From assembly GCA_050239825.1 (NCBI GenBank), contig JBFXGO010000002.1, forward strand, positions 817 through 64,816: 64,000 bases of DNA. The letters are read 5' to 3'. Numbering within the stretch: the first letter of the stretch is position 1; each line of letters opens with the position of its first letter. Source of the DNA: a bacterium. Its GTDB lineage: Bacteria > Hydrothermota > 32-111. The notes beneath the pieces were generated by a model. The model had not been told where the DNA came from. It did no database searches and saw only the letters and a list, made by a program, of their open reading frames with translations. Of the stretch, positions 293 through 56,373 are shown piece by piece. A program made the position numbers and the translations under genes.

Positions 293-1228
293 TTATTCTG
301 AGGCGGCGCACCGGAACCCGTTACCGTAGTACATGTTGGCCGGATTACCGGAGTTGCGGTAGGCAGTGCGTATGCCGTAGCCATTGCCGCGCCACGAGCT
401 GCCGCGAAAAACTCTATAAGAACCACTGCTCGGGCCCTTTGGATTCTTGTATTCACTGGTTCTGTAATAACTCTCTCCATACCAGTCATTACTCCATTCC
501 CATACATTACCTGACATATCATAACACCCATAAGGACTCCTGCCTCTCTCATAACTCCCTATCGGTGATGTGTATCTGTAGCCATCTTCTGTTCCAGTAT
601 AATTGCATCTGTTTGTCCCAGGTTCTCCATCTCCCCAGGGGTACTTCCGAGAGTCCGTCCCCCTCGCCGCCTTCTCCCATTCCGCCTCTGTGGGTAACCG
701 TAATCCCGCCCAAGCACAATATGCCTTCGCATCATTCCAACTGACATTTACTACCGGATACTCCGGATAATTCGTGAAATAATAACTCGTTCCGTTAAAT
801 CCCGGATCTGGTGGGTAGCTCCTCCCTGTCTCGTCGCAGAACTTCTTATACTGTTTGTTTGTCACCTCATATTTCATCATATAGTACCCGTCAAGGTAAA
901 CTTTATGCACCGGCTTCTCGTCATCTTCTCCGCTCTCGCTTCCCATTGTAAACTCTCCCGCTGGTATGTATATCAAAACACTTCCGTCTTTATTATTTAT
1001 ATATTCTTTATAACCATATTCATTTGTTTTAAGGTATGTTTTTTTATAATAATCTATGATAATATTTCTTAAATCTACAGAAAGGATTACTAATAAAACT
1101 GTTAAAATTACTATCCATTTTACTTTATTAAGTTTCTTCCTTTTCTTATACTCTTCAGATTCTTTATACTTTGTTAACAGCTCGTCGTATATTTTTTGGC
1201 TTTTTGAATTTAAATTTTCTTTTAGCAT
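293..1228 (-). CDS. Membrane protein with a short Lys-rich cytoplasmic N-terminus, one TM helix and an extracytoplasmic non-catalytic FGE-sulfatase (SUMF1-like) domain; paralog A
   Basis: ORF translation carries FGE-sulfatase hallmarks (NVSWNDAKAYCAWAG, GNVWEWSNDWYGESYY, RVFRGSSW). Only one Cys sits near the C-terminus (FRCAASE), so the catalytic Cys pair of true FGE is absent. Hydrophobic stretch KWIVILTVLLVILSV follows a KK-rich N-terminus. Confidence 0.75.
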   Translation of the reverse strand: MLKENLNSKSQKIYDELLTKYKESEEYKKRKKLNKVKWIVILTVLLVILSVDLRNIIIDYYKKTYLKTNEYGYKEYINNKDGSVLIYIPAGEFTMGSESGEDDEKPVHKVYLDGYYMMKYEVTNKQYKKFCDETGRSYPPDPGFNGTSYYFTNYPEYPVVNVSWNDAKAYCAWAGLRLPTEAEWEKAARGTDSRKYPWGDGEPGTNRCNYTGTEDGYRYTSPIGSYERGRSPYGCYDMSGNVWEWSNDWYGESYYRTSEYKNPKGPSSGSYRVFRGSSWRGNGYGIRTAYRNSGNPANMYYGNGFRCAASE

Positions 1229-1234
1229 TTAATC

Positions 1235-4200
1235 TTATTCAAGCATTTTTATTAGTTCACCTGTATTCTTTATTCTCTTTTCTGCATCTTTTGCCAAACA
1301 GCCCTTTATTATATCTTTCATTTTTTGTTCCATATCATCATATTTTGGTTCTTCATATAAAACCTGTGTTGACAAAGCAAAAATATCCTCTCCTTCAAAA
1401 GGTAACCTTCCGGTTGACATTTCATACATCATTACTCCCATCGCCCATATATCCGCCTCTTTTCCTATTTCAATCTTTTCGGTGCGTGACATTGATTTCT
1501 TATATTGCTCTGGTGAAGCATAAGGGAATGTAAAATCGCCGCCTGTCGATGTAGTAGCTCCAAGAGTTTCCAGCTTTGCCGACCCAAAATCCGCTATTTT
1601 AATCATACCTTTTGAATTGAACATTATGTTTTCCGGTTTCAAATCTCGGTGAATCACTCCATTTTCATGTGCATAATTCAACCCCTTCAATATTGGTATT
1701 ATATAATTTTTCATCTGATCATATACCAAGCGCTCATGCTTTTTCAATTTGTTTCTCAAACTTCCATCATTCATATAATCCATTACATAATAGAAAAGAT
1801 CTTTTTCCATTCCTTCTTCAAATATCCTTATTATATTCTCATGATTCATCTTCTTCATCGCCTGTATTTCATTTTTAAAGTGCATAAGCTTTTTTTCGTC
1901 TTCAATTGTGGTATATGAAACTTTTATAGCAACTTCTTTGTTGTCTCTTATGTCTTTGCCAAGATATACTATCGCCTGACCGCCACCTCCCAATTTTTTT
2001 ATCTTGACATAATTACTGCCAAACCTTTCATTTTCCAGCAGAGACAGCCTTTCATTTACATCCTTGTAATTAATATCCACTACAGCAATTTTTTCCAACA
2101 CACCCTTTGCTCTGTCAAAGTCCCCCTTGTTCCATAAATCCAAAGCCAACATGTATTCTGTCTCTATGTTATCCTTCTTATCTTCGTATTTTGATGAAGT
2201 ATTTTCCTTTAAATTGTTTAATTTATTAATTCTTTCGTCTATGTCTTCAAATACAAAATCTATTGATGCGATTTTTTCATACAACCATTTTGCATAAGAA
2301 TATCCTCCATATTCTTCAAACATTCTAGCGATTCTGTAATACTCTTTTTTGTTCTCCTTGAGTGGCAAATGATTATTTAAAAGCATCTTTACATGTTCCA
2401 TTGAAGCTTCCATATATCCAGTCTTCATCAAAGTATTTACAAGCAATTTCCTTGCTTCAATTTTATATTTTTCATTGTCAATTAACTCCTGCAGCAGTAT
2501 GATGGCATTTTTTGTGAATCTAATGTTTTTCATATAGAGTTTCACAAGCTTCATTTTCAACTCTTCTTCCGTCATTTTATTTGCATATTCCATCTCATCC
2601 CTATCAAGATTACTCTCTTTTACAGGAGAGGCCTCATTAAAGGAATGCCCTGTCACATGCGCAAGTGCTTTGCGATTAATCCAGATTAACATTGATAATA
2701 TCTTCCCTTCTATTGTTTCCTTTAGGCCTAATCCATCTCTATCTGCGGTCATCTCTGCAAATTCTCGCGCTTCATAATAATTTTCATCTTGAATACAAAT
2801 CTTAATATGCAATAGAATGTCATCATATTTTGCACTTTGCCTGTCAACTATCTTCTTTGAGTATTTATACGCGCCGATTATATCTTTGCTTCTAAGTGCT
2901 TCATTCCTCAATATATAGTTTATTTTATGATTTTTAGATTCCTTTTTCTCCAATTCCCTGCACAGCAGTAATGCCATTTTTTTGTATGCCTCTACTTCAG
3001 AATACTTCTCAAGTATTAATTTCACAATGTTTTCCGATGATGCAATGCTATCCAATCTTGTTTCCAACACTGATATGAATGCCATATCTTGAACATTCTT
3101 AGATAAAAGTAAGTATGTTATTCTTTGGAATATAACTTCATTTGAATTACTTTTAATAGACAAATTTTTATGAAACAGAAGAATGAGCTGATTTGGTTGT
3201 AAGACTTTCAATGCGGCTTCATCAAAATATTCCGCATCGAGTTGGTTCTCAAGTGCGATATTCAAATAATTAAATGAGTCATCATCACTAAATCTCATAT
3301 TATTTGCTTTAATTGACTTCATCAATAAAGGCAGATTATTTTTATCCTTTTTTCGGTTAAATTCATTTAAGATATCCATCAATAAGTTAATATCATCCAC
3401 AAATATTCTGCCGACAGGCGAGTCTTTTAGCTTCAATACTTCATTGATAAATTCTCTGTTTTCAGAAAGGATTGATATGTTTTCAGCTATCCATTCATTT
3501 ATATTGTTTGCAAATAATAGTATTTTGATTAGACTTGTCATGTCATTTGTTTTCAGCAATTCATCAGCTATACTCCTGTAGTTTTCATATCTATTATTGT
3601 TTTTTATTATCCTATCTATCAATTCAGAGTAATTTACTTTATTCTTAACTGAAATTTCTGTTGAAAACAAAAGCAATTCATCATCTTCGTCATCAGAATT
3701 TAAGATCCTTTCATTCAACATCTTTATTTTGTTACCATCTTCTGCCTCATCAAATGATTTATACAAATTAATAATTGCTGATTTATTATTTTTTATATCT
3801 ATGATTGATAAATAATTTTCAAGCGTTTTATGTGTCGGAACGCCTCCATCCTTACATTCATAAACAAATTCCACCATAGTTGCTATTTCTTTACGCTTAT
3901 TAAATTTATTGAGAACGTCCAAAAGATTCTTTATACTTTCTTTTGAGAAAGTTTTTATACTGTCAGGTTCAACAACTAAAGCGTCTAATAAATTTTCACA
4001 GATATTGGTATTCTCTGACGATAGAATCGCCTCCAACTGCAGAAGCATTCTATCATCCAACCAAATGTCATCCTTGATTTCATACACATTGCTAAAAATA
4101 AATTTGACATTTCTGTTATCTGATAAAATCTTGTTTATTATTGATATTATCAACGGAGAGTATTTCCTGTTTATGCATTCTTTTAGAATTATCAGTAATG

Positions 4201-4711
4201 TTCTATCCTTGAAATGTAGCGAATTGTCTAAAATACTTTTATTGAATGATTTAAGTTCATCTAAACCTATTTCACTTAAAACCTTTTCTATTTCAATGAA
4301 ATCATTTAATCCGTCAGCGAAACTGATTTTTGCCAAGGTTGTAGTGGGGACAAATGATATACTATTTAAATACTTAAAATCACTTACATTTTTTGCCATT
4401 GAGAAAATATCGTTTTCATAGTAGTCTTTACTTATCCACGATTCCTTTGAAAATAAACGCGTAAGCTTTTCAAAGTTTTTTTCTTCTTTAAGATATTCTA
4501 TCAACCGTGAGAGTGCCTCGATTTTCCATTCAGCGTTCTTTAAATTAGAAATTTGATAGTAAGTGGAAATTGCCTCTTCAACTTTGTTGTCATTAATTTC
4601 TAAGATAAATCGCTTGTGAAGAAAATCGAATGATTTATTTCTATCATACTTACGATTGAAATAGATAATTATTATATAGGTTAAAAACAAAAGGATGGAT
4701 AATATAAGCAT
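1235..4711 (-). CDS. Membrane-anchored Hanks-type Ser/Thr protein kinase. N-terminal TM helix, then about 850 aa of uncharacterised helical region, then a C-terminal kinase domain.
   Basis: C-terminal kinase motifs: GGGGQAIVYLGKD...VAIK (Gly loop and Lys), HRDLKPENIMF (catalytic loop), IADFGSAK (DFG), PYASPEQ (APE-like). N-terminus MLILSILLFLTYIIIIYF is hydrophobic. Confidence 0.85.
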   Translation of the reverse strand: MLILSILLFLTYIIIIYFNRKYDRNKSFDFLHKRFILEINDNKVEEAISTYYQISNLKNAEWKIEALSRLIEYLKEEKNFEKLTRLFSKESWISKDYYENDIFSMAKNVSDFKYLNSISFVPTTTLAKISFADGLNDFIEIEKVLSEIGLDELKSFNKSILDNSLHFKDRTLLIILKECINRKYSPLIISIINKILSDNRNVKFIFSNVYEIKDDIWLDDRMLLQLEAILSSENTNICENLLDALVVEPDSIKTFSKESIKNLLDVLNKFNKRKEIATMVEFVYECKDGGVPTHKTLENYLSIIDIKNNKSAIINLYKSFDEAEDGNKIKMLNERILNSDDEDDELLLFSTEISVKNKVNYSELIDRIIKNNNRYENYRSIADELLKTNDMTSLIKILLFANNINEWIAENISILSENREFINEVLKLKDSPVGRIFVDDINLLMDILNEFNRKKDKNNLPLLMKSIKANNMRFSDDDSFNYLNIALENQLDAEYFDEAALKVLQPNQLILLFHKNLSIKSNSNEVIFQRITYLLLSKNVQDMAFISVLETRLDSIASSENIVKLILEKYSEVEAYKKMALLLCRELEKKESKNHKINYILRNEALRSKDIIGAYKYSKKIVDRQSAKYDDILLHIKICIQDENYYEAREFAEMTADRDGLGLKETIEGKILSMLIWINRKALAHVTGHSFNEASPVKESNLDRDEMEYANKMTEEELKMKLVKLYMKNIRFTKNAIILLQELIDNEKYKIEARKLLVNTLMKTGYMEASMEHVKMLLNNHLPLKENKKEYYRIARMFEEYGGYSYAKWLYEKIASIDFVFEDIDERINKLNNLKENTSSKYEDKKDNIETEYMLALDLWNKGDFDRAKGVLEKIAVVDINYKDVNERLSLLENERFGSNYVKIKKLGGGGQAIVYLGKDIRDNKEVAIKVSYTTIEDEKKLMHFKNEIQAMKKMNHENIIRIFEEGMEKDLFYYVMDYMNDGSLRNKLKKHERLVYDQMKNYIIPILKGLNYAHENGVIHRDLKPENIMFNSKGMIKIADFGSAKLETLGATTSTGGDFTFPYASPEQYKKSMSRTEKIEIGKEADIWAMGVMMYEMSTGRLPFEGEDIFALSTQVLYEEPKYDDMEQKMKDIIKGCLAKDAEKRIKNTGELIKMLE

Positions 4712-4712
4712 C

Positions 4713-6842
4713 TTAAACGCTCTTGAATAATTTACAATTTAACGCATCTTGAACTTCAGCAACATTATCAAATCTTTCTTCTTTTTTCTTGGCAAGGCAT
4801 TTTTTAACTATCATTACCAAATCATCATCCAATTCTGGGTTGATAAGTTTTGGATTCGGAATTTCTGCATCTCTGTGCATTAATGGAAGTTTATACACTT
4901 CATCTGGCACATACGGTGGAAATTTAACCAGCATGAAATACATTATTCCCCCCAGTGCATATATATCTGTCCTGTGGTCAACTTCTTTAGGATTAAAAAA
5001 CTGTTCCGGAGAGGAAAAGTAGGGAGTTCCAATGAAAGCAGTTGATTTTGTAAGTTTCAGAGAGCCGCTTGATGAAGTTGATGAAGCTGAAACTCTTGCA
5101 AGACCAAAATCTGTGATTACTGGAGATAAATCTTTTTTTATTATGATGTTATCCGGTTTTAAATCTCTATGAATGATTCTGTTGGGTTGATTGTGTATAT
5201 AATCCAGAGCACTGCAGATGCCGCAAGTGATTTTCAAAAAATCTTCTCTGTTGATAAAGCCCTGATTCTTTATGAATTCAGACAAAGAGACTCCGTCTAT
5301 GTATTCCATTACAAATAAATATTTATCCTCCCACAGCGCGTCATCGAGAATCTTAATGATGTTGGGATGATTAAGCCCGCTCATAACCTTTACTTCCCTG
5401 CGAAATCTTTCAACTACAATGGGATCTACACTAAGTGATGGCAATATTTCCTTTATGGCTACTTTTTTTCCTGTCTTAATTTCCTCACCCAGGATAACTC
5501 TTCCAATGCTTCCTCCTCCTATTTCTTTCTGAAATTTGTACTTATCCCAAAAGGTTTCCATGAGGCCTGACTTCTTTGGGTTGGAGAGTTCCTTAAATAT
5601 TTTAGAATCTATGGTTTCAGCCCTTTTAAGACAGAGCTTTTCTTTATCAAGCGTTCCTTTACTTATATAGGCCTTCGAGAGATTAACCAGCAATTCTATT
5701 ACTTCCTTAAGTTCGTATTTTTGCAGGTCTTTTTTTAATTCAGCATCTGTTAATTTATCCATCAGAGAAAATGATACATCCAGATTGCCTTTTTCAAAAA
5801 ACACTCTTGCCTTTAAAATTTCTATCTTCAAATTCATCTCTTTCACATCTTTAATCTTTTGCAGACACATAAGGCTTTTATCAAGGGCGCCCTGATTAAG
5901 ATAGATTTCCGCCAACGCATAATTTGCTTTATCATTAGAGTTATTAATCGCCAATGCTTTTATGAAACACTCGCTTGCTTTTTCTATATTTCCTGTCTTT
6001 TGATAGCATAACCCTTTTATAAAATATCCGTCAGAATTATTTTTATCTTCATCCAGAATCGAATCCATGAGCTTTATTACTTCAGAATACATGCCCTTTT
6101 TAAGATAGATATTTACAATCTCCTTTTTAGTTTCTACATTGAGATTACCACTTTCAAGGGCTTTCTTATAAAAATGCAGTTGAAAGCTCTCGTCGAAGGG
6201 ATTGTTTTTTGCTGCTTTTATATAAGCTTCTTGGGCTTTTTTAAAATCTCCTTTCTTTTCATAAAGTTCGCCTATTCTTTCATAGGCAAATCTGTTTGTT
6301 TTATCAATATTTATTGCTCTTTCATAGTATTCTATGGCTTTTGATTCCTGCCCTGTTATATAGAATATATTTGCTATTTTTGCCGATACTTCATGAGAAG
6401 CACCTTCTATCTTTTCCAATTTCAACAGACAATCCAATGCTTCCGAGTATGCCTGTTTTTTAATAAATTCCTCCGAAAGTTTGTCATATACAATTTTTAT
6501 GCTCTCTTCAATTTGCCTTTTGTATATGTTGTCACCCCCTATCAGTTCAATTTCCTCTATGGCATTTTCAAATGCTGTTTTAGCCCTTTCAAAGCTTCCT
6601 GATTGCATTAAATCATTAGCGTTTTTTATTTTTATCTCTATATTTTTCTTTTTCTCGTCATACTCTCTTCTCTTTCTTTCCCGCTCTTCATTAATTGCGG
6701 AAGAATCAATATAGTCTCTGTCGGAATTTGAATGTCCGTCATTTCTATTTTTATTTATCATATTTGAAGCAACTGTTGCTCCTGTGCCGAAAGCGGCTCC
6801 GGCAATTGCATATCCAATTACTACGGCGAGTAATTCCCACAT
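4713..6842 (-). CDS. Membrane-anchored Ser/Thr protein kinase with TPR repeats. N-terminal TM, TPR region, C-terminal kinase domain.
   Basis: Kinase motifs: GGGSIGRVILGEE, VAIKE, HRDLKPDNIII, TDFGLAR, GTPYFSSPEQ. Repeated TPR-like A/Y/F periodicity (AIEYYERAINID, AQEAYIKAAKNN). N-terminal hydrophobic segment WELLAVVIGYAIAGAAFG. Confidence 0.85.
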   Translation of the reverse strand: MWELLAVVIGYAIAGAAFGTGATVASNMINKNRNDGHSNSDRDYIDSSAINEERERKRREYDEKKKNIEIKIKNANDLMQSGSFERAKTAFENAIEEIELIGGDNIYKRQIEESIKIVYDKLSEEFIKKQAYSEALDCLLKLEKIEGASHEVSAKIANIFYITGQESKAIEYYERAINIDKTNRFAYERIGELYEKKGDFKKAQEAYIKAAKNNPFDESFQLHFYKKALESGNLNVETKKEIVNIYLKKGMYSEVIKLMDSILDEDKNNSDGYFIKGLCYQKTGNIEKASECFIKALAINNSNDKANYALAEIYLNQGALDKSLMCLQKIKDVKEMNLKIEILKARVFFEKGNLDVSFSLMDKLTDAELKKDLQKYELKEVIELLVNLSKAYISKGTLDKEKLCLKRAETIDSKIFKELSNPKKSGLMETFWDKYKFQKEIGGGSIGRVILGEEIKTGKKVAIKEILPSLSVDPIVVERFRREVKVMSGLNHPNIIKILDDALWEDKYLFVMEYIDGVSLSEFIKNQGFINREDFLKITCGICSALDYIHNQPNRIIHRDLKPDNIIIKKDLSPVITDFGLARVSASSTSSSGSLKLTKSTAFIGTPYFSSPEQFFNPKEVDHRTDIYALGGIMYFMLVKFPPYVPDEVYKLPLMHRDAEIPNPKLINPELDDDLVMIVKKCLAKKKEERFDNVAEVQDALNCKLFKSV

Positions 6843-7639
6843 TATAGCTCCTTCTTTCTTTTATTAACTGAAAGCAATTTGAACATTCTCCTGAAAGTAG
6901 GAAAATAGTCTTTAGGTTTATCCTTCTTTTCCATTTGGACAACTACTGCAGTGATATTATCTTCCCCTCCGGTTTCATTTGCTAAATCAATCAGATTCTT
7001 GACAGATTCCAAACCATTTTTTGAAACAATCTCCAAAATTTTCTCATCGTCGACCATATTGCTAAGTCCGTCCGAACAGAGCAAGAAAAAATCACCTATA
7101 TCATAATTTTCGATAAGTTTAATTTCACAAGAGTTATTACCCTTTGGATTACCAAAATACTTAGATATTATATGTCGCCAAGGATGCTCTTTTGCCTCTT
7201 CTTCAGTAATTTTCTTGTTTCTCAGCAGTTCGGCAATCATTGTCTGGTCGTGTGTCAATTGAGTTATCTTCCACTTTCTCTTCCTTTTGCTTATCTGGTA
7301 TATTCTGCTGTCGCCTAAATTTAATGTAACGATGCCCTTCATAGATTTCATCAACAGTACAAGCGTAGCACCCATTTTGTGGTATTTAGGATCGCTTTCG
7401 CCAGTTTTTACCAAAAGGTCATTTGTTATCGTACAAATTTGTGACAAATCAGTTTTTTTATTGTCAACTATTTCTTTTATAAACGAATTTATCACCATTT
7501 CACTTGCAACTTCACCCGAGTTGTGTCCTCCCATGCCATCCGAAACCATGTAAAGACAAATATCATCATTGATATAAAATTTGTCTTCATTATTCTCTTT
7601 TATTTTACCGATGTCAGTTAATCCCTTTGCTTTCATCAT
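6842..7639 (-). CDS. PP2C-family (PPM) Ser/Thr protein phosphatase
   Basis: PP2C motifs: LTDIGKIKENNEDKF, VSDGMGGHNSGEVAS, LCSDGLSN, ETGGEDNITAVVV. Start overlaps the stop of the upstream kinase gene by 1 bp. Confidence 0.85.
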   Translation of the reverse strand: MMKAKGLTDIGKIKENNEDKFYINDDICLYMVSDGMGGHNSGEVASEMVINSFIKEIVDNKKTDLSQICTITNDLLVKTGESDPKYHKMGATLVLLMKSMKGIVTLNLGDSRIYQISKRKRKWKITQLTHDQTMIAELLRNKKITEEEAKEHPWRHIISKYFGNPKGNNSCEIKLIENYDIGDFFLLCSDGLSNMVDDEKILEIVSKNGLESVKNLIDLANETGGEDNITAVVVQMEKKDKPKDYFPTFRRMFKLLSVNKRKKEL

Positions 7640-7751
7640 TCTCCTCTTTAATATTATATATTTTACTTTTTTAAATTATAAAGTCAACAATAATTGTGAA
7701 TTGTTTCTAATCTAAATTTAGAATCAATTATCAAAGAGCCAAGGACCAAGA

Positions 7752-8783
7752 TTATTCTGAGGCGGCGCACCGGAACCCGCCACCGTCGATCACGAAGGCC
7801 GGGTCAATGTTGCCGCGGTCGGCAGTGCGCATGTTGCCGACACCGCCGTACCACGAGCCGCCGCGAAGAACTCTTTCTGAGCCGCTATTCGGCCCCTTAG
7901 GATTCTTGTATTTACTGGTTCTGTAATAACTCTCTCCATACCTGTCATTACACCATTCCCATACATTACCTGACATATCATAACAGCCATAAGGACTCCT
8001 TCCATTCTCATAGCTTCCTACTGGGGATGTGTATTTGTAGCCGTCCTCTGTTCCCTCATAATTGCATCTGTTTGTTCCGGGGTTTTCATTACCCCATGGG
8101 TATTCCCTGCCATCCGTTCCCCTTGCCGCCTTCTCCCATTCCGCCTCTGTGGGTAACCTTAAATCCGCCCAATCGCAATATGCCTTCGCATCATTCCAAC
8201 TGACATTAACTACAGGATAATCTGGATAACTTGTAAAATAACTGCTCATTCCGTCAAATCTCGGTTCTGGTGGGTAGCTCCTCCCCGTCTCGTCGCAGAA
8301 CTTCTTATACTGTTTGTTTGTCACCTCATATTTCATTATGTAATACCCGTCAAGGTAAACTTTATGCACGGGTTTTTCGTCATCATAATCCCAGCTCCCC
8401 ATTGTAAACTCTCCGGCTGGTATATATATCAAGACACTCCCGTCTATCGAATTTTCATATTCATCATATCCGTTTGCATTCCTTTTTATTAGTGTTAGTG
8501 TTCTGGTAGAGACATTTAACATTAGATTAATAAATACTATGAATCCAATCAATAAGAGTCCAATAAAAAAACCTATTCTGTCAAACTCAAGAATGTTGAA
8601 CTTTAAAATAACCAGAGATACTAAGATATATAAGACCGGAAATGTAAAATTTATCAACCACTTAATTCTATTTACTTTCATCCTATTTTTAAACTCTTCA
8701 GATTCTTGATATTGAGTCAACAGCTCTTCATATCTTTTTTGGATTTCTTTGTCTAAATTAACTAAGTTTGTCATTTTATCCAT
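7752..8783 (-). CDS. Membrane protein with extracytoplasmic FGE-sulfatase (SUMF1-like) domain; paralog B
   Basis: Same motifs as 293-1228 (NVSWNDAKAYCDWAD, GNVWEWCNDRYGESYY, RVLRGGSW). Has two internal hydrophobic segments rather than one. Conserved cytoplasmic N-terminal motif YEELLTQYQESEEFKNR matches YDELLTKYKESEEYKKR in paralog A. Confidence 0.75.
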   Translation of the reverse strand: MDKMTNLVNLDKEIQKRYEELLTQYQESEEFKNRMKVNRIKWLINFTFPVLYILVSLVILKFNILEFDRIGFFIGLLLIGFIVFINLMLNVSTRTLTLIKRNANGYDEYENSIDGSVLIYIPAGEFTMGSWDYDDEKPVHKVYLDGYYIMKYEVTNKQYKKFCDETGRSYPPEPRFDGMSSYFTSYPDYPVVNVSWNDAKAYCDWADLRLPTEAEWEKAARGTDGREYPWGNENPGTNRCNYEGTEDGYKYTSPVGSYENGRSPYGCYDMSGNVWEWCNDRYGESYYRTSKYKNPKGPNSGSERVLRGGSWYGGVGNMRTADRGNIDPAFVIDGGGFRCAASE

Positions 8784-9283: not shown

Positions 9284-9712
9284 TTATTCAATAATTTCCC
9301 AGTATCCCAATTTATCACTGCCTATTCTTTTTATTTTGCCTTCACTCTTAAGTTTGCTTATGTTCCACTCAATGCCCCTTCGTGAAAGACCTATCACCAC
9401 TTCAAGTTCTTTAATTGTTATATTTGGTTTTTGTCTGATTGCAGAGATGATTTTCTCCACAGTTTTCTCCACAATTTTCTCCGAACTCTGCATATTTTTT
9501 CTTTTGAATGTCACTAAAAAGAAATCTCCAACTTCTTCAAAAGTAGTTTCTGATTCTAATTTCATTATCTTACCGATTCCTGTTCCCCATTTTTCTATAT
9601 ATTTAATTCTATGGAAAATTTCAGAAATTAGTTCATTTCTCCGTATTGAAATCACTGCTTCCTTTAATTGAGTAAGAGACTCTTTGAATTCCAATGTTTC
9701 TGTTTCTTTCAT
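9284..9712 (-). pseudogene. C-terminal fragment (HATPase_c_4-like plus winged-HTH) of a Schlafen/AlbA_2-type putative DNA-binding ATPase. The N-terminal domain is missing.
   Basis: KYIEKWGTGIGKIMKLESETTFEEVGDFFLVTFKRK resembles the C-terminal module of divergent-AAA/AlbA_2 family proteins. Only 142 aa. Flanked by 32-bp direct repeats. Confidence 0.45.
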
Positions 9713-9877: not shown

Positions 9878-10456
9878 TATGCCGAGAAAGCCTAAAATAA
9901 GAGGAATAAAACAGAAAGGAGAGTATGTAAAAAAAAAAGGATTAAAATACGTCAAAGGGATAACGGAATGTATTTTGAGGAAGGGGAAACGAAGTGTTAT
10001 ATAGCGAGGAAAACAGGAATGAGCAAGAACTTTGTGATAAGATGGACCCAATCAAGGGATCAGGATTTTACAGAGGATAACAGAGGGTGGGAGAAGGGCA
10101 AGATGCGTAAAAGGGAGAAAGACACAACTTTTATTATACTCCCCAAAAAGGTATCAAGTTTTATAGGCATAAACTCGGCAATTAAGAAGTCAGGCAAGAG
10201 TGTTAACGGCAATGGCAAAATAAGCAAAATGGGTAACAGTTATGTGAGAAAGATGTTTATGATGGGAGCCAGAACCGCAATAAACTCCAATGTTGGCTGT
10301 AAGGCGATGAACGAACGGTTGACTGCAAAGGATAAAGCATACAGAGTCAGAATGATAGCTGTCGGTCATAAACTTTTAAGACAGGCATTTGCTGTTGCTA
10401 AACAGGGTGTTAAATATAATCTTGATATTTACAATACTGTTATGCGAACCTCTTGA
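9878..10456 (+). mobile_element. Decayed mosaic transposase remnant. IS630/Tc1-like HTH N-terminal pieces in two frames, plus an IS110-family-like C-terminal segment.
   Basis: MPRKPKIRG ORF runs to a stop after about 50 codons. A second frame carries YIARKTGMSKNFVIRWTQ (HTH_Tnp-like). The C-terminus SKMGNSYVRKMFMMGARTAINSN...AKDKAYRVRMIAVGHKLLRQAFAVAKQG resembles the conserved IS110 transposase C-terminal region. No intact transposase is present. Confidence 0.5.
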
Positions 10457-10595
10457 CAAAAAGCACAGTACATGCTGAACGCCTCTATTCATTTCTCTAC
10501 AGTGAAGCAACTATCAATCCGCTAATTGCGATCGGATTTTGTCTTCTCTTCTTCTTCGAACCCGCAACTCGAAACTATTAACTTCCTTTTTGCTT

Positions 10596-10760
10596 TGCCC
10601 GCAGCACACGGTGTGCAAAGCACTCTTGCCCCCGGAATCTTCTTCAACTCTCAACTATAAACCATTAACTGTTTTTTCTTGCTCACAGCTCACGGATTAT
10701 GGCGTCTTCACTGCCCACAGCACAAGGCACATGGTGTGCGAAGCACTCTTGCCCCCGCGG
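10596..10760. repeat. Two direct copies of a GC-rich hairpin-containing motif (GCACACGGTGTGCAAAGCACTCTTGCCCCCG), 117 bp apart
   Basis: 10599-10632 and 10716-10757 share about 30 bp. Each contains the palindrome GCACAC-G-GTGTGC or GCACAT-G-GTGTGC. Confidence 0.45.
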
Positions 10761-10801
10761 CGTTGAATAATGTCATTTATTCCCCGACTGATTTAATCTC
10801 C

Positions 10802-10847: not shown

Positions 10848-10875
10848 TTGACATAACCCGACTATTGCATATAAT
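10848..10875 (+). promoter_or_regulatory. Sigma70-type promoter. TTGACA, 16 nt spacer, TATAAT. Only 6 nt separate the -10 element from the ATG, so the transcript is possibly leaderless.
   Basis: Exact consensus hexamers at 10848-10853 and 10870-10875. ATG at 10882. Confidence 0.5.
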
Positions 10876-10881
10876 GAAATC

Positions 10882-12084
10882 ATGAAAAGAAATCTGTATA
10901 CAAATGCGCTTAACAGTATAGTGGATGATAAGAAAATTCTTCTGGTCACGGGAGCTCGTCAGTCAGGAAAGACAACAATAGCCAAACAATTTATGGATAA
11001 TTTTAAGAATGGCATTTATTTTAATTATGATTCAGATAGAAAATACCTCCTTAATAATCCAAGATTCTATGAGGAACAGAACAAAGTTGACGATTCGCCT
11101 CTTCTTGTTGTCTTTGACGAACTGCATAAATATAGAAGTTGGAAGACCTACATGAAGGGAAATTATGACAGAAACAGGGACGATTTCAGATATCTCGTCA
11201 CTGGAAGCGGAGACCTTAACATATCTTATAAAACGAAGGAATCACTGGCGGGAAGATTTGAATTGATTCATGTTTTCCCATTCACATTGAATGAGTTTTT
11301 CAATCGGTGTTCTTATGACGAATTTTTCAGCAATCCGATCGGAATGCCGGGCAGTTTAGGCAGTAGAAATTCATTTGATACAATGAATGGCTTACTTAAT
11401 ATCTCGCCGTTTCCGGAGCCGTTTTTGAAATCATCGAAACAGTTTTATAAGAGATGGTCAAAATCATACTTCCCGCAGATTATAAATATTGACTTAAAAT
11501 ACAGCGCCGTTTTTCATGAACTGGATAAACTGGAGACGCTTTTTGATATTCTTTCATTAAAAGTGTGCTCCGGATTTTCATATAGCAATGTGGCAAATGA
11601 CATTGAAGTCTCGCCGCCTACAGTGAAGCAGTGGATGAAGCTTCTTGAGAGTCATTTTTTGACATTCTCGTTAGCCCCTTACGGCAAATTCTCGCGCACC
11701 ATTAAAAAGCAGAGAAAGGTTTATTTATATGATTACGGAAGAATAGAGAACGAATCATCGAAATATGAGAATTTTGTCGCATTGGAACTTTTTAGGTTTG
11801 TTAAGAATGCAAATGATTTTGGAGAATCCGTAAACATGTTTTATGTTAAGGACAAAGATCAAAGGGAAGTGGATTTCATCATAACTTATAACGGAAAACC
11901 GTTTTTACTTATTGAAGCTAAAGAAAACGATGAGGATACAAAAAATTTAAAACATTTTCAAACTATATTTAAAATTCCTGCAGTTCTTTTGGTAAGAAAA
12001 TCTGGGATTCACAAACTCTTAACCAATGGTGAACACAAAATCACAGTAATATCAGCCGACAAATTCCTTTCAACTCTTCCTTGA
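10882..12084 (+). CDS. AAA-family ATPase with C-terminal DUF4143-like domain (COG1373-type ATP-binding protein)
   Basis: Walker A LVTGARQSGKTT. Walker B-like VVFDELH. Overall architecture typical of the AAA_14/DUF4143 family. Confidence 0.8.
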   Translation: MKRNLYTNALNSIVDDKKILLVTGARQSGKTTIAKQFMDNFKNGIYFNYDSDRKYLLNNPRFYEEQNKVDDSPLLVVFDELHKYRSWKTYMKGNYDRNRDDFRYLVTGSGDLNISYKTKESLAGRFELIHVFPFTLNEFFNRCSYDEFFSNPIGMPGSLGSRNSFDTMNGLLNISPFPEPFLKSSKQFYKRWSKSYFPQIINIDLKYSAVFHELDKLETLFDILSLKVCSGFSYSNVANDIEVSPPTVKQWMKLLESHFLTFSLAPYGKFSRTIKKQRKVYLYDYGRIENESSKYENFVALELFRFVKNANDFGESVNMFYVKDKDQREVDFIITYNGKPFLLIEAKENDEDTKNLKHFQTIFKIPAVLLVRKSGIHKLLTNGEHKITVISADKFLSTLP

Positions 12085-12265
12085 CTCTTTACCTTATTCC
12101 ACCAGTGTACACTTCCGTCATCTTTATGAGCATTTTCAGAAAATCCTTTTCAAGAAACGGTTTTTTTAAAACTATCAGCTTCATTGAATTTATAAAAATA
12201 TTTTCAAAGTCGGCGCAATCATACTCTGTAAGCAGCAGAACCCTATCGGTGCTTCTAATAAGATT

Positions 12266-12460
12266 TTAATTATCGTCCCTGAACATATCAAGGTCGGTTG
12301 CCTGTGCGTCAATCACTATAATCCTCTCCTCATCTTCAGAGTCTCTCAACTCCGACGGGGTCTTGACGGCAACACCGTACCCGTTCTTCTCAAGAATGAA
12401 CTTCAGGGATAACAGGTGCGGGTTATTGCCGTCAATGAGGATTATATTCTTATCTTTCAT
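12266..12460 (-). CDS. Small ORF with weak resemblance to a CheY-like receiver N-terminus. Possibly a degenerate fragment.
   Basis: MKDKNIILIDGNNPHLL resembles MKK.ILIVDDN with D to G substitutions. Only 64 aa. Confidence 0.2.
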   Translation of the reverse strand: MKDKNIILIDGNNPHLLSLKFILEKNGYGVAVKTPSELRDSEDEERIIVIDAQATDLDMFRDDN

Positions 12461-12462
12461 AA

Positions 12463-12621
12463 TTATTCGTTCTGAAAGACCGTGTTGTTTTTATCGATTG
12501 TGTAACTCTCTTTGCTTCCGTTCATAGATCCGTCAAGATAAGTCATTTCTATTATGCTGAGCGCGGCAAGAACATTAAAGAAAGTCAGGGTAATTTCAAT
12601 CTTTCTCATTATCTGTTTCAT
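12463..12621 (-). CDS. Small hypothetical protein (52 aa) with hydrophobic N-terminal half, directly upstream of 12266-12460
   Basis: Manually found. The ATG is preceded by GGAGGAAAAATG (strong SD) on the minus strand. Not in the supplied ORF track because it is under the length cutoff. Confidence 0.25.
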   Translation of the reverse strand: MKQIMRKIEITLTFFNVLAALSIIEMTYLDGSMNGSKESYTIDKNNTVFQNE

Positions 12622-12982
12622 TTTTCCTCCTTATATCGACTGTATTGTTTTAAAATTCTTTTCAGCTCTCATTACCTTGGATACAGAGACCACTGTATTC
12701 ACCTCAACAAAGACAATCGCCAGAACAAAAACCGCAAGAGGATTCCCTGCGCCGCTCTTTGAACTTTCTGTTTCATAAAAACCTCCATTTTTAAAGTTAA
12801 CATACTCTAACGCACTATCCGTGCCACACAAATATATTCGCATAACACGCGTGACAACAACAACTTGCGTTTTATAAAACCTGTTTAGAAGGGAGGAATT
12901 CGGTGCGACAAAAGTTTACATTGTTTTCTCTATAAATATCTGTTTCGCGGAAATTTTTTAAGGGGGGGTCTGTTATATTAAT

Positions 12983-14287: not shown

Positions 14288-15157
14288 ATGGCAAAATTCC
14301 TTATCATTCAAAATCCTGTGGCAGGAAACGGGTCTTCCGTTGAATATCTCCCCGAAATAATTTCAACAATCGAAAGATTGAAAATTCCTTATGTTTTAAA
14401 AAAGACATCTGAGAAGTTTGATGCGCAAAAACATGTCAAAGAGTGGATGACTCCGGATATCACAGATATTGTTGTTGTCGGAGGAGACGGAACTCTAAAT
14501 GAAGTTGTGAATGGGTTATATCCGCATCTGAAGCCGATACGGCTGATAAGCACGGGCACAGGGAATGACCTCGTGAAAAATCTGAAAGATTACACAATGG
14601 ACAATCTATTTCTCACAAATGATTTTCATGCAATAGATTTGTTTACAGTAAATGACACTGTCGGGATAAATGCGCTCGGACTGGGTTTTGACGGAGAGGT
14701 TGTAAGCGAGATGGATGAAAAAAACCTCAAAATAAACGGAATGTTCGCCTACATGATTTTTGTTCTTTCCAAGCTCTTTAAATTCCGCGCTCCGCGGTAT
14801 CATATAACTGCTGATGGTATAGATTACAGGGGAAAATACTACATTACATGCGTGGGAAACGGAAAAGCTGTCGGAGGGGGATTTTTCTTGACTCCCAAAG
14901 CGCACATTGAAGACGGAAATCTTGATATTTGCCTCATCAGTGACATTCCTATGATTTTAAGACCCTATTATCTTATTAAAGTCATGATGAAAATACATCC
15001 CGGAGATAAAAAGGTTATTTATAAACAGTTCAAAGAGATGATTATAAGAAGTTCAAGAAATATTATGGGGCAGGTTGACGGTCAGCTTGTAACAGGCAAA
15101 GAATTTGTTGTGAAGATTGTAAATGAAAAACTTCATATAGTCTCCCACAAACACTGA
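14288..15157 (+). CDS. Diacylglycerol/lipid kinase catalytic-domain protein (DAGK_cat; YegS/BmrU-like)
   Basis: IVVVGGDGTLNEVVNGL motif and overall length and architecture of the DAGK_cat family. Confidence 0.8.
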   Translation: MAKFLIIQNPVAGNGSSVEYLPEIISTIERLKIPYVLKKTSEKFDAQKHVKEWMTPDITDIVVVGGDGTLNEVVNGLYPHLKPIRLISTGTGNDLVKNLKDYTMDNLFLTNDFHAIDLFTVNDTVGINALGLGFDGEVVSEMDEKNLKINGMFAYMIFVLSKLFKFRAPRYHITADGIDYRGKYYITCVGNGKAVGGGFFLTPKAHIEDGNLDICLISDIPMILRPYYLIKVMMKIHPGDKKVIYKQFKEMIIRSSRNIMGQVDGQLVTGKEFVVKIVNEKLHIVSHKH

Positions 15158-15173
15158 TTTTTTCAATCCCCCT

Positions 15174-15672
15174 GTAAAGACAAAATCTTACTCAGCAGTG
15201 TCACCCTGAACGCTTCTATGGTTATGACTATCGTGAAGGGTCTATCAGTTTATTGCTTATTGATAATTGAAGATTGAGCTGGGGCTGCACGCGGGCATAG
15301 CGTCGACTCACACACTCCGCTTCGCCGCTTTATCAAGATGGGAAAGCGGAGCAAGGGGTCGGCCACTTGATGGGCGTCTGCGCGGAGCGTCCTCGCCGAC
15401 TTGTAGCTTTCACTTTCAATAAGTTAATTAATTGATTGTCCTCATGAGAAGCATTGAAAAGACGAGCGCTGTGGACAGGCTTCTCATTCGGAATTGTAAA
15501 GACAAAATATTAATCAGCAGTATATTGAGTTATGACTGTACTGGAATTTTTCCTCGGAACTGTAAAGGCAATTTATTTACTCAGCTCCCCGTATTATGCG
15601 CATGGCACACGGCTCATGGCTCAAGGCTGATTTTGTGGCTGCACGCTGGCATAGCGTCGGCTCACACAACAA
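15174..15672. repeat. Second locus of the mosaic interspersed repeat family. It holds module B, one full GC-rich core, module C and one truncated core.
   Basis: 15174-15420 is near-identical to 54478-54720. 15540-15672 matches 54770-54900. The array starts 17 bp after the dagK-like stop codon. Confidence 0.9.
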
Positions 15673-15883
15673 AGAGAGTTGAAAAGTAAAAGAGTTAAAA
15701 TGTAGAAGGATTAAACAGAAGAAAAGTAAAAAATAAGAAATCAATTTTTAGCTTTTGTACTCTTTTACTCTCTCTTACCTCTTACTTTTCTTTCTTATAC
15801 CTTCACATCTTCTCATTAGGCAAACACAAATCTTGACTGAATCTATTTTTTGCATTATCATTATTTTTTAACAAGGAGTTGAT

Positions 15884-53079: not shown

Positions 53080-53147
53080 TGTGGATAATATAAGAACAAC
53101 TTTGGTTTTTCCACATCAACTTCGGTTAACAACATAATTGTGAATAT
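53080..53147. promoter_or_regulatory. DnaA-box cluster in the dnaA-dnaN intergenic region. Candidate oriC or DnaA autoregulatory site.
   Basis: TGTGGATAA at 53080-53088 is a perfect reverse-complement of TTATCCACA. TTTTCCACA at 53107-53115 has 1 mismatch. TGTGAATAT at 53139-53147 is degenerate. AT-rich 177-bp spacer. Confidence 0.5.
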
Positions 53148-53254: not shown

Positions 53255-54364
53255 ATGAAATTTCACGTTGACAAACAAGAGTTTTTGAAAAACCTCAATA
53301 CAATATCAAGCATTGTTCCTGCAAAACCCATTGTAACAATAATCTCCAATATTATGATTGAAGCGAAAAAAGAGACATTGTCATTTTCCTCTACTGATTT
53401 TGAAATAACAATGCATTCAGAGATGCCTGCAACAGTCACTGAGGACGGAGTGATTGTTATAAATGCAAAGACAATAGTTGAACTTGTAAGAAAACTTCCT
53501 GAAGGCGAACTCTCAATATCTCTCTCCAATGATGAAGTATCTATAAAATCAAAGTCAGGCATTTATAAAATGCCTGTAATCAAGAAAGATGATTATGTGG
53601 AAATTTCAAGAATAGAAAAAAACAAGATGTTCAATGTTGATTCTCTTCCATTGAAATCTGCAATAGACAATTCAGTATTTGCAGTTTCCAAAGATGCCGT
53701 AAAAGTTGCAATAACCGGAGTTCTTCTTGAAGGAGCCGGAAAGAATCTGACATTTGTTGGAACAGACGGACACAGGTTGGCATTTTATTCAATCAAAGAT
53801 ATTTTTGAAAAACCCATATCAAATTCTGTTATAATTCCTCCAAAGGTTTTGACGATTCTTAGAGACCTTATTGATGATGTGGATGAATTCAGCATGGGTT
53901 TTGATGAAAAGAGAATTATGTTCAAAGTCAAGACAATAGAAGTCTGGGCAAAACTCATAGAGGGTACATATCCTGATTACAAACGAGTCATACCAACGGA
54001 TAACAATAAAGTCATGATTGTCAAAAAGGATGACCTTATAAATTCTCTTAACATAATAAATGTGTTTACAAATCCAAATACGAGGCTTGTCAAATTTGAA
54101 ATAGAGAGCGGCAAGCTTATAATAAATGCGTATCAGAATCAGACAGGAGAGGGGACGGAGTTTATCGAAGTCGACTATGAAGATAAAGAGAAGCTTGTGA
54201 TAGGATTCAACAATAACTATCTTCTTGAAATACTAAAACGGATAGAGACTGAGAATGTAAAGTTTAAATTCAAGGGAGAGATGTTTGCTGTGATAGTTGA
54301 AAACGAAATGAGCAAGGTTGATCAGGAGGCAATTTATATTATAATGCCTCTCAGATTAAAGTAA
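53255..54364 (+). CDS. dnaN: DNA polymerase III beta sliding clamp
   Basis: Three-domain beta-clamp architecture. MKFHVDKQEFLKNLNTISSIVP start. Follows dnaA. Confidence 0.95.
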   Translation: MKFHVDKQEFLKNLNTISSIVPAKPIVTIISNIMIEAKKETLSFSSTDFEITMHSEMPATVTEDGVIVINAKTIVELVRKLPEGELSISLSNDEVSIKSKSGIYKMPVIKKDDYVEISRIEKNKMFNVDSLPLKSAIDNSVFAVSKDAVKVAITGVLLEGAGKNLTFVGTDGHRLAFYSIKDIFEKPISNSVIIPPKVLTILRDLIDDVDEFSMGFDEKRIMFKVKTIEVWAKLIEGTYPDYKRVIPTDNNKVMIVKKDDLINSLNIINVFTNPNTRLVKFEIESGKLIINAYQNQTGEGTEFIEVDYEDKEKLVIGFNNNYLLEILKRIETENVKFKFKGEMFAVIVENEMSKVDQEAIYIIMPLRLK

Positions 54365-54390
54365 AAACAGATTTATATTATTGAGTGCAA

Positions 54391-54420
54391 AGAGGCGGGG
54401 TAACTCCCGCCTCTTTTATT
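54391..54420 (+). terminator. Rho-independent terminator after dnaN
   Basis: AGAGGCGGG-GTAACT-CCCGCCTCT followed by TTTATT. Confidence 0.7.
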
Positions 54421-54477
54421 GAAAATGTAAAAGAGTGAAAATATAGGAAGGTTAGAATGTGAGGGAGATTGAGTAAA

Positions 54478-56330
54478 GCTAAAATCTTACTCAGCGGTGT
54501 CACCCTGAACGCCTCTATGGTTATGACTATCGTGAAGGGTCTATCAGTTTATTGCTTATTGATAATTGAAGATTGAACTGGGGCTGCACGCAGGCGTAGC
54601 GTCGGCTCACACACTCCGCTTCGTCGCTTTATCAAGATGGGATAGCGTAGCGAGGGGTCGCCCACTTGATGGGCGTCTGCGCGGAGCGTCCTCGCCGACT
54701 TTGAGCTTTCATTTTCAATAAGAATTGATTTGCTTGTCCTCGGAAAAACATTGAATAGCAGTGCGGAGATGCACTGGAATTTTTCCTCGGAAATGTAAAG
54801 ACAAAATCTTACTCAGCTCCCCGTATTTTGCTCAAGGCACATGGCTCACGGCTCATGGCTGATTTTGGGGGCTGCACGCGGGTGTAGCGTCGGCTCACAC
54901 ACTCCGCTTCGCCGCTTAATCAAGATGGGATAGCGTAGCAAGGGGAGAACCACTTGATGGGCGTCTGCGCGGAGCGTCCTCGCCGACTTGTAGCTTTCGT
55001 GTATCAATAAGTTAATTAATTGATTGAATCTTCACAAAGCATTGGCGAGGGTGTAATGTGCGCGAGCGCACATGATAGACGCCTCGGGCTGCACCAGAAC
55101 TTTGTGAAGATTACTGTAAAGACAAAATCTTACTCAGCGGTGTCACCCTGAACGCCTCTATAGTTATGACTATCGTGAAGGGTCTATCAGTTTATTGGTT
55201 ATTGATAATTGAAGATTGTTCTGGGGCTGCACGCGGGTGTAGCGTCGGCTCACACACTCCGCTTCGCCGCTTAATCAAGATGGGTTAGCGGAGCAAGGGG
55301 ACAACCACTTGATGGGCGTCTTCGCGGAGCGTCCTCGCCGACTTTGAGCTTTCACTTTCAATAAGTTAATTAATTGAATGAATCTTCTAAAACCATTGGC
55401 TGGGGTGTAATGGACGCGAGCGCACATGATAGACACTTCGGGTTGCACCAGAACTTTGTGAAGATTATTGTAAAGACAAAATCTTACTCAGCAGTATCAC
55501 CCTGAACGCCTCTATGGTTATGACTATAGTGAAGGGTCTATCAGTTTATTGTTAATTGATTATTGAAGATTGTTCTGGGGCTGCTGGCGGGCTTAGCGTC
55601 GGCTCGCACACTTCGCTTCGCCGCTTAATCAAGATGGGATAGCGGAGCAAGAGGTCGCCCACTTGATGGGCGTCTGCGCGGAGCGTCCTCGCCGACTTGT
55701 AGCTTTCGTGTATCAATAAGTTAATTAATTGCCTGAATCTTCTAAAACCATTGGCGCGGGTGTAATGGACGCGAGCGTCCATGATAGAAAAAACGGGTTG
55801 CACCAGAAGTTTTAGAAGATTATTGAAAAGAATAAATATTAATCAGCAGTATATTGAGTGATGACTGCACTGGAATTTTTCCTCGGAAATGTAAAGACAA
55901 GTTATTTACTCAACTCCCCGCATTAAGCTCAAGGCACATGGCTCACGGCTCATGGCTGATTTTGGGGCTGCACGCGGGTGTAGCGTCGGCTCACACACTC
56001 TGCTTCGCCGCTTAATCAAGATGGGTTAGCGGAGCAAGGGGACAACCACTTGATGGGCGTCTGCGCGGAGCGTCCTCGCCGACTTGTAGCTTACACTCTC
56101 AATAAGAATTGATTTGCTTGTCCTCGGAAAAACATTGAATAGCAGTGCGGAGATGCACTGGAATTTTTCCTCGGAAATGTAAAGACAAAATCTTACTCAG
56201 CGGTGTCACCCTGAACGCCTCTATGGTTATGACTATCGTGAAGGGTCTATCAGTTTATTGTTAATTGATTATTGAAGATTGTTCTGGGGCTGCACGCGGG
56301 TGTAGCGTCGGCTCACACACTCCGCTTTTG
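54478..56330. repeat. Array of a mosaic GC-rich interspersed repeat family. Five full and one truncated ~130-bp cores (GGGGCTGCACGCGGGTGTAGCGTCGGCTCACACACTCCGCTTCGCCGCTTAATCAAGATGGG...GTCCTCGCCGACTTGTAGCTTTC) are joined by three alternative flanking modules.
   Basis: Core copies start at about 54580, 54867, 55223, 55577, 55964 and 56286 (truncated). Spacing is irregular (about 290-390 bp) and the linker modules repeat among themselves, so this is not a CRISPR array. The ORFs called inside (such as 55552-55803) are artefacts. Confidence 0.9.
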
Positions 56331-56373
56331 CTCCTATTGACAATATTGTTTAAATATTATATATTGAAATATT

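Follow-up and report, generated by a model that had tools for sequence, protein, structure and literature searches.

What does it mean when neighbouring copies of a hairpin differ in sequence and each is perfectly paired? The question is raised by positions 54470-56330 of a 64,000-nucleotide (nt) stretch of bacterial DNA (the whole analysed stretch, hereafter the window), in which an 18-nt palindrome occurs in three versions. A first-pass annotation had taken the matched differences between two of them as a sign of selection on a hairpin, and the third for a mismatched evolutionary intermediate. The three versions read exactly as it had claimed, and the matched two-change difference between the perfect copies at 55056 and 55765 was confirmed at arm positions 4-5. 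The palindrome is the apical part of a longer stem-loop, linker B, which is one interchangeable module of a lineage-specific mosaic repeat family of candidate division WOR-3. With moderate confidence, we favour the view that this is a REP/BIME/REPIN-like extragenic repeat family that acts as folded single strands and whose arrays are reshuffled by recombination.

The three copies lie in array 2, which comprises about 1.9 kb of non-coding sequence with a tandem period of 354 and 2.8 copies. It is situated between dnaN and a gene for a class-A penicillin-binding protein (PBP), with dnaA and dnaN directly upstream. Its units follow the order S module, GC-rich core of about 123 nt, and linker, the linker carrying a stem-loop just before the next S module. 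Three linker types, B, D and E, are interchangeable at this position.

A nested stem-loop with compensated arms

The inner hairpin of copy 1 reads ATGTGCGC-GA-GCGCACAT and that of copy 3 reads ATGGACGC-GA-GCGTCCAT (coordinates in Table 1). Both are perfect palindromes with arms of 8 base pairs (bp), and they differ at arm positions 4-5, where T-A becomes G-C and G-C becomes A-T. Copy 2, ATGGACGC-GA-GCGCACAT, joins the left arm of copy 3 to the right arm of copy 1 and has two mismatches. Perfect 8-bp hairpins are not rare alone (20 in the window vs about 6 in shuffles); the 30-nt module pattern occurs at three sites in the window and in none of 100 shuffles. The non-random feature is that two homologous copies are each perfect, yet differ at two base pairs.

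The 8-bp hairpin forms the tip of a stem-loop of about 86 nt with a 13-bp outer stem, AATCTTCACAAAG / CTTTGTGAAGATT in copy 1 and AATCTTCTAAAAC / GTTTTAGAAGATT in copy 3. These outer stems are again both perfect, and three further base pairs differ between them; in copy 2, a left arm of the copy-3 type faces a right arm of the copy-1 type, with three mismatches. Folding of 90-nt stretches gave -37.8 kcal/mol (z -4.87) for copy 1 and -31.4 kcal/mol (z -4.29) for copy 3, and copy 2 (-19.8 kcal/mol, z -0.38) folded no better than shuffles.

When the three window copies were aligned with one homologue from another genome, six pairs of the inner and outer stems were altered on both sides and none on one side only, a signal that was lost when the partner was shifted by 1-3 columns. 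Because the arms co-vary in this alignment, and because the other linker types and the S module also retain their stems through double changes, we conclude that some process keeps the linker arms complementary. Linker B of the metagenome-assembled genome (MAG) STE_119 has a third perfect compensated variant of the outer stem, CTTCGCAAAG / CTTTGCGAAG (cttcGcaaag/ctttgCgaag). The copy in a sister species, ATGACTGC-AA-GCAACCAT, is the same in six full-length sampled contigs and has one compensated pair in its inner hairpin (C-G to T-A); its outer stem is lost, it folds no better than shuffles, and it looks like a decayed copy.

The mismatched copy is a recombinant

Copy 2 is a recombinant, not an INTERMEDIATE. 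All five variable stem sites to the left of its loop are of the copy-3 type and all five to the right are of the copy-1 type, and the switch point falls inside the eight central bases common to all copies. Such a clean split between left and right marks crossing-over or gene conversion in which both parents were perfect hairpins, and it is explained by one crossover, or by one conversion tract that has its end in the palindrome centre. A stepwise route would take five uncompensated changes in two helices and then five compensations, which is far less parsimonious than one crossover. The earlier description of the copy at 55410 as an evolutionary intermediate is therefore abandoned.

The remainder of unit 2 is a patchwork, with a core like that of copy 1, a core-linker junction like those of other units and scattered sites like those of copy 3, which implies repeated conversion among units. 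A single unequal crossover for the whole of unit 2 was considered and rejected; it accounts for the hybrid hairpin only, and the patchwork remainder needs several conversion events.

Competing explanations for the paired changes

Mis-assembly of near-identical repeats could in principle account for how the units are ordered, and perhaps for the hybrid copy 2. The same strain's short-read assemblies do break at both edges of array 2 (on one side contigs end 37 nt inside the array, on the other 30 nt short of its end), and many sister-species contigs stop or switch downstream partner at arrays. The inner-arm variant sites of copy 2 are just 9-11 nt apart, however, which is below any assembly k-mer, so the hybrid inner hairpin must exist in the reads and is no k-mer artefact; the units are also about 10% different throughout, which offers assemblers unique paths. 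We consider such an artefact improbable. The model of the first-pass annotation, a functional RNA stem under stepwise compensatory substitution with the copy at 55410 caught in transit, draws on the two perfect versions with matched differences and on the sense orientation of the family relative to upstream genes. It too is improbable, given that copy 2 is mismatched at all five differing pairs in two helices with the arm split described above, that neither of the two copies from other genomes has kept the inner hairpin intact, and that no Rfam family matches. The same annotation had offered a symmetric site for a dimeric DNA-binding protein, and an 18-bp duplex palindrome indeed has the length and dyad symmetry typical of operators. 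Yet the half-sites of adjacent copies differ at two of eight positions and are different again in the sister species, and the site is nested in a longer stem-loop within a repeat unit, is missing from the homologous STE_119 module, and overlaps no promoter, being located after a terminator and ahead of the promoter that follows. There is neither an adjacent regulator gene nor a DNA-binding gene linked to the hairpin, and an operator is very improbable.

Purely mutational upkeep is the alternative with a documented mechanism. Here, intrastrand template switching (quasipalindrome correction) would copy changes from one arm to the other, the stems would have no selected function, and copy 2 would be not yet corrected. 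Template-switch replication errors generate multi-base matched arm changes in a single event and without selection (PMC8794818, Monttinen and Loytynoja 2022), which would explain multi-base compensatory changes such as the adjacent dinucleotide changes in three stems (inner TG to GA, outer AC to TA, linker D GG to AC); by our arithmetic, the chance of this adjacency alone is roughly 0.02. The changes are, moreover, mostly transversions with no G.U route, in B stems that are strand-symmetric and contain no G.U pairs. What this account leaves unexplained are the stem positions and loop length conserved across diverged sub-families and species, the 2x2 mismatch conserved at the base of linkers D and E beside covarying pairs, and the bias towards sense orientation. 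In addition, the stretches that separate the inner from the outer stem are not complementary, so that each copy would require two separate events to have both stems corrected in the same direction. We therefore regard mutation as the sole cause as unlikely. The step from paired changes to selection on the hairpin survives in part: the arms co-vary, with six double and no single changes, but template-switch errors can yield matched changes in one step (PMC8794818), and constraint is plausible for the stem-loop as a whole and for the family.

A proposed role as folded single strands in recombining arrays

On the reading that we favour, the modules would act as folded single strands, in the form of either a sense transcript or single-stranded DNA. 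As RNA, they could be stem-loops in 3'-untranslated regions (3'-UTRs) that block exonucleases or terminate transcription, as REPs do; as DNA, the single strand could be recognised by whichever enzyme spreads the element. If modules act folded, the copies that go on spreading would be those with intact stems, and lineages of still-spreading copies would keep them, as old copies decay. Arrays in place would grow and be scrambled via unequal crossing-over and gene conversion, with the palindrome centre as one breakpoint, and this may have produced the mismatched copy at 55410.

Folded-strand constraint, template-switch errors and recombination are non-exclusive. The favoured reading commits to the first and the third, and template switching is the likely source of some double changes. 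Folded-strand constraint is preferred because stem position, loop length and specific mismatches are kept across diverged sub-families and because orientation is biased towards sense. The arrays differ between close relatives in presence, size and composition, and are sense to the upstream gene. Their orientation and their placement right after stop codons point to RNA; DNA is suggested by the strong terminator in front of array 2, by the strand symmetry of the stems and by the insertion/absence polymorphism.

Several observations weigh against this reading. The inner 8-bp hairpin is not conserved outside array 2: the centre of linker B in STE_119 reads GGTCGCTATCGCTCC, which is unpaired and forms no inner hairpin, and in the sister species six of the eight pairs are formed, the two mismatches (A.C and C.A) falling precisely on variable positions 4-5. 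Additional copies with uncompensated variation, which the first-pass annotation had set as the refuting evidence, were thus found, but in an apparently decayed copy, and the outer stem is kept in STE_119. The B stems, pure Watson-Crick and folding equally well on either strand, fit upkeep at the DNA level as well as function. The pair changes between copies 1 and 3 are clustered and four of the five are transversions, a pattern that fits templated multi-base events better than stepwise selection. The linker-B sample holds only five distinct versions, the long-range internal order of array 2 is that given by the assembly, and no transposase or recombinase in the window is linked to the repeats. 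An RNA role at array 2 is doubtful, since a strong terminator lies before the array.

A more novel reading takes the family, made of sense units 3' of genes, as a hitherto undescribed kind of structured element specific to WOR-3, in which the conserved features (the hairpin with invariant tandem G.A and fixed loop length, linker stems that keep a 2x2 mismatch below freely covarying upper stems, and fixed array ends) would be recognition sites for a structure-specific protein. We judge this distinctly unlikely. If true, it would imply a new system of non-autonomous mobile elements, perhaps tied to the IS110-type recombinase of which a remnant adjoins one array, or a new class of 3'-UTR RNA regulators.

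Comparison with known repeat systems

From its architecture and behaviour, the family would be placed among REP/BIME-, REPIN-cluster- or BOX-like mosaic extragenic repeats, and is not demonstrably a REP. REPs are defined as short palindromes (20-40 bp) of which one end carries an unpaired tag, GTAG or CGTC; they lie mostly 3' of genes and are plausibly transcribed or act as RNA (PMC3733652). In BIMEs, REPs are regularly spaced and alternate in orientation (PMC2817692). Like the REPs and BIMEs of Enterobacteria and Pseudomonas, the WOR-3 repeats are extragenic, GC-rich relative to the genome, hairpin-forming and mostly 3' of genes, and they form mosaics of alternative modules with variable copy number at which assemblies break. 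The WOR-3 core also starts with (G)TAG-CGTC followed by a palindrome, in this case an imperfect one of about 100 nt, and a canonical unit of GTAG plus an 8-bp stem, GTAGGGGCGGAC-ctgtgt-GTCCGCCC, is present in the sister-species and L006 arrays only, which hints at a real link to the REP world. In contrast to REPs, the WOR-3 modules are 55-125 nt long, and the G of the tag is not conserved in the cores (GTAG, ATAG, TTAG, GAAG). Unlike BIMEs, all modules of all WOR-3 arrays are direct. The copy-number criterion for REPs and REPINs is more than 100 per genome, and copies were counted here in 64 kb only.

REPIN hairpins show frequent compensatory changes and occur in tandem clusters (PMC3116915, Bertels and Rainey 2011), and since such changes are already described for hairpin-forming extragenic repeats of this kind, no new mechanism is called for. 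The similarity extends to the long hairpin with compensatory arm changes, a spacer conserved in length and variable in sequence, tandem clustering and strong differences between close relatives. A REPIN, however, consists of two inverted copies of one REP, whereas in the WOR-3 arrays each module has its own stem, several unrelated stem-loops are strung together, and the linker-B arms do not match a REP that also occurs singly elsewhere. REPs and REPINs have an associated RAYT (Y1 tyrosine transposase) gene in the genome with the repeats on its flanks. No such transposase was found here: within the 64-kb window no RAYT was seen, and the Y1/RAYT (Y1_Tnp) domain was present neither among 30 scanned open reading frames (ORFs) nor in the Pfam assignments of the rest, about 45 proteins in all.

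BOX elements of Streptococcus pneumoniae have the structure boxA-boxB(n)-boxC, with modules of 45-60 nt. They share with the WOR-3 family a modular make-up, direct orientation, a variable number of internal modules, a stable predicted structure, intergenic location and the lack of a transposase of their own, and differ from it in sequence and phylum; to our knowledge, a nested double stem-loop of the linker-B kind is not described for BOX. Integron attC sites and the subterminal hairpins of IS200/IS605 elements are structure-specific recombination sites in single-stranded DNA. As in these sites, structure is kept and stem sequence varies in the WOR-3 linkers, with conserved mismatched stem positions (TC/TC in linkers D and E) and flanks. 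They differ in that the linkers have no R''/R' boxes (RYYYAAC/GTTRRRY), no integrase or TnpA nearby and no cassette ORFs. An integron attC array was accordingly rejected, the flanks ..TTGATT / A.TGTAAAG being free of R''/R' sites and the neighbours being dnaN and the PBP gene. Template-switch mutation resembles the present case in its multi-base matched changes and perfect Watson-Crick stems; it is a process rather than an element family, and leaves dispersal, orientation bias and module architecture unaccounted for.

The analysis documents a family of mosaic palindromic repeats in WOR-3, a candidate phylum for which there is no cultured model, and the family explains why MAG assemblies of WOR-3 organisms break at particular intergenic sites. 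Beyond this lineage, a "mismatched intermediate" between compensated hairpins in a tandem array can be a mere crossover product, and covariation in repeat arrays is to be read with recombination and template switching in mind.

Modules of array 2 and their boundaries

The features of the arrays are collected in Table 1. Arrays start with an S module and close with a truncated core (...TAGCGTCGGCTCACACAC). The S module begins with GTAAAGACAAAAT and occurs in long, short and alternative versions. In its hairpin, CTGAA...TGAAG (the tandem G.A) is invariant and the 24-nt loop is variable in sequence; three pairs covary (ATTC/GAAT, ATCC/GGAT, ACCC/GGGT, C-G/G-C), with 11 cells altered on both sides and a score reached by 0 of 500 shuffles. 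Linkers D and E share a common base, TCC-TC-.. / ..-TC-GGA, with a conserved 2x2 mismatch, and carry different complementary upper stems; between species, linker D changes from GG/CC to AC/GT. In the GC-rich core, by comparison, 94.7% of alignment cells are paired, no covariation was seen and folding z-scores were ordinary. The core is too conserved to show covariation and is at most a candidate for a selected RNA fold.

Table 1. Positions of the repeat arrays, their modules and bordering signals (window coordinates unless a contig is named)
Feature	Position	Strand	Description
Array 2, mosaic non-coding repeat array	54470..56330	+	[S-core-linker] x5, then truncated S-core5'; holds the three hairpin copies
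Linker-B stem-loop, copy 1	55027..55112	+	outer stem 55027-39/55100-12, 13 bp perfect; inner hairpin 55056-55073, 8 bp perfect
Linker-B stem-loop, copy 2, recombinant	55381..55466	+	outer stem 55381-93/55454-66; inner hairpin 55410-55427
Linker-B stem-loop, copy 3	55736..55821	+	outer stem 55736-48/55809-21, 13 bp perfect; inner hairpin 55765-55782, perfect
GC-rich core module	54868..54990	+	imperfect palindrome of about 123 nt, GTAG-CGTCGGC..CTCCGC....GCGGAG..GCCGAC
Further core copies	54581, 55223, 55577, 55964, 15281		truncated 5' parts 56286-56330 and 15637-15668 close arrays
Linker-D stem-loop	54737..54791	+	TCC-TC-GGAAAAA / TTTTT-CC-TC-GGA; same position as linker B; identical copy 56121-56175
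S-module hairpin	55140..55192	+	(A)NNC-TGAA-CG ... CG-TGAA-GNN(T); invariant tandem G.A; loop of about 24 nt
Other S hairpin copies (starts)	54497, 55494, 56203, 15198, 10467		10467 diverged
dnaN intrinsic terminator	54388..54413	+	left boundary of array 2
PBP promoter-like site	56337..56365	+	TTGACA-17-TATATT; right boundary of array 2; conserved in relatives
Array 1	15172..15668	+	15 nt past stop codon of lipid-kinase gene (14288-15157); linker E; truncated core at end
Third array, diverged	10457..10800	+	S-like hairpin and S_short-like modules, directly 3' of truncated IS110-family transposase ORF
REP-like GTAG unit	L018 2328-2351	-	
REP-like GTAG unit	L018 11220-11244	+	
REP-like GTAG unit	L006 6669-6694		

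The inner hairpin of linker D (54759-54776) is followed by a T-run. This hairpin (CAGTGC GGAGAT GCACTG) with the following GAATTTTTCC, at 54759-54789 and 56143-56173, scores as intrinsic-terminator-like, so some array units may terminate read-through transcription. The S module folds better on the plus strand and linker D better on the minus strand; a comparison of linker-hairpin folding on the two strands, meant to decide between RNA and DNA, was set aside as uninformative, the B stems being pure Watson-Crick and equal on both strands.

Within array 2, we found neither a conserved ORF nor a sigma-70-like promoter. The Rfam 15 covariance models gave no match in the window at the gathering threshold, and a permissive scan gave only chance-level matches (E > 0.3) over the dnaN terminator. 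A short hydrophobic ORF in the S module (MVMTIVKGLSVYCLLIIED at 54512-54571, 15213-15272 and in homologues) is probably not coding. It was considered as a type I toxin of the Ibs/Sib or Ldr kind and rejected, the length of MVMTIVKGLSVYC.. not being conserved (13, 13, 19 and 19 codons); in one copy the start is shifted to the second ATG, giving 40 codons that run into the core.

A role of the array as oriC repeats was likewise rejected, as 54364-56373 contains no DnaA-box match and the array is missing at this locus in relatives. The likely oriC is the 177-nt dnaA-dnaN spacer, near the cumulative GC skew minimum (about 47-53 kb), where a perfect DnaA box (TTATCCACA, minus strand) and a box with one mismatch lie at 53080-53115.

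A purine-rich module (GAAAAGTAAAAGAG...) flanks arrays, at 15669-15800 and at 54416-54470, the latter a related copy that precedes array 2. At 15673-15792, immediately ahead of the promoter-like site that serves the following gene, it forms a large imperfect palindrome whose 28-nt arms are 79% complementary.

Distribution and polymorphism among relatives

A protein with the annotation candidate division WOR-3 shares 91% identity with the lipid kinase of the window. For the window's DnaN, 12 relatives form a tight group at 59-93% identity, after which identity drops to about 35%. The repeat family is present in STE_119 (L003), whose lipid kinase is 88% identical, and in the sister species, sampled from many metagenomes (contigs L018-L027). 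A scan of genome contigs with one core 21-mer found it in one species representative only; one of the two matches (L002, Parapontixanthobacter) was judged to be chance, on account of its organism and of its confinement to the 21-mer. The family was not found in JGI metagenomes scanned with the core 21-mer, where chance matches in GC-rich DNA alone were obtained, in viral contigs scanned with two other conserved motifs, or in the plasmid collection. Spurious ORFs across the repeat, used as probes, had no match among 5.8 billion proteins. The literature on repeats in WOR-3 yielded nothing relevant, and no description of this family was found there or in Rfam.

The spacer between dnaN and the PBP gene varies strongly among relatives. 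It measures 2 kb and holds the array in the window genome, and 270 nt with a single diverged S-core5' unit in a relative whose DnaN is 93% identical. At 89% DnaN identity the spacer is 380 nt long and lacks the family, at 79% it is 135 nt with no unit detected, and at 60% it is 27 nt. The site 3' of the lipid-kinase gene is similarly polymorphic, with an array in the window and a solo unit of about 95 nt in L029; in the sister species another array occupies it, and in STE_119 it is empty. In L007 (7420-7600), where DnaN is 89% identical, the repeat family of the window is not near dnaA/dnaN, and there is a different local repeat (TATACTGAGTCCACTTAACAG..GAGAAAAGTAGTAGAATGTT), with two copies upstream of dnaA and one in the dnaN-PBP spacer.

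Six of six independent arrays between co-directional genes are in sense orientation, and a seventh array lies between convergent genes. In the sister species, contigs L018/L020, L019 and L021 (about 10870-11520) have the same lipid-kinase gene and array followed by three different sets of downstream genes, encoding TPR/guanylate cyclase, pilin-like N_methyl proteins and an NTP_transf_2/HepT toxin-antitoxin pair, respectively. Six further contigs end about 110-325 nt past the kinase gene, most of them still within the array. The arrays are either rearrangement hot spots or points of assembly chimerism.

The REP-like units within the relatives' arrays consist of GTAG and the 8-bp stem (GTAGGGGCGGAC ctgtgt GTCCGCCC) followed by AATCAAATCAAATG; the canonical unit does not occur in the window arrays.

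Other arrays and neighbouring features in the window

Arrays of the family occupy three or more intergenic sites of the window; the three described here hold about nine core copies in 64 kb, all of them extragenic. Array 1 is 82-93% identical to array 2, and its linker-E stem is formed by 15439-52/15479-92. The ORF preceding the third array (9968-10456, plus strand, 162 aa) has only the C-terminal Transposase_20 domain (IS110/IS116/IS902) and is thus 5'-truncated. IS110-family elements are known to target REP-like repeats. Either the insertion sequence landed in the third array, or the modules derive from its 3' end.

Upstream of this ORF, a 12-nt tandem repeat (ATTTTCTCCACA, 2.8 copies at 9450-9482) contains two DnaA-box-like TTCTCCACA motifs and lies in or next to an HTH_24 gene (9284-9712, minus strand). 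A stretch of about 900 nt at 12085-12982 has no ORF of at least 90 aa, no Rfam match and no tRNA. The minus-strand cluster at 293-8783 encodes two proteins with FGE-sulfatase domains, two large Ser/Thr protein kinases, one of them with TPR repeats, and a PP2C phosphatase, and looks like a eukaryote-like signalling module.

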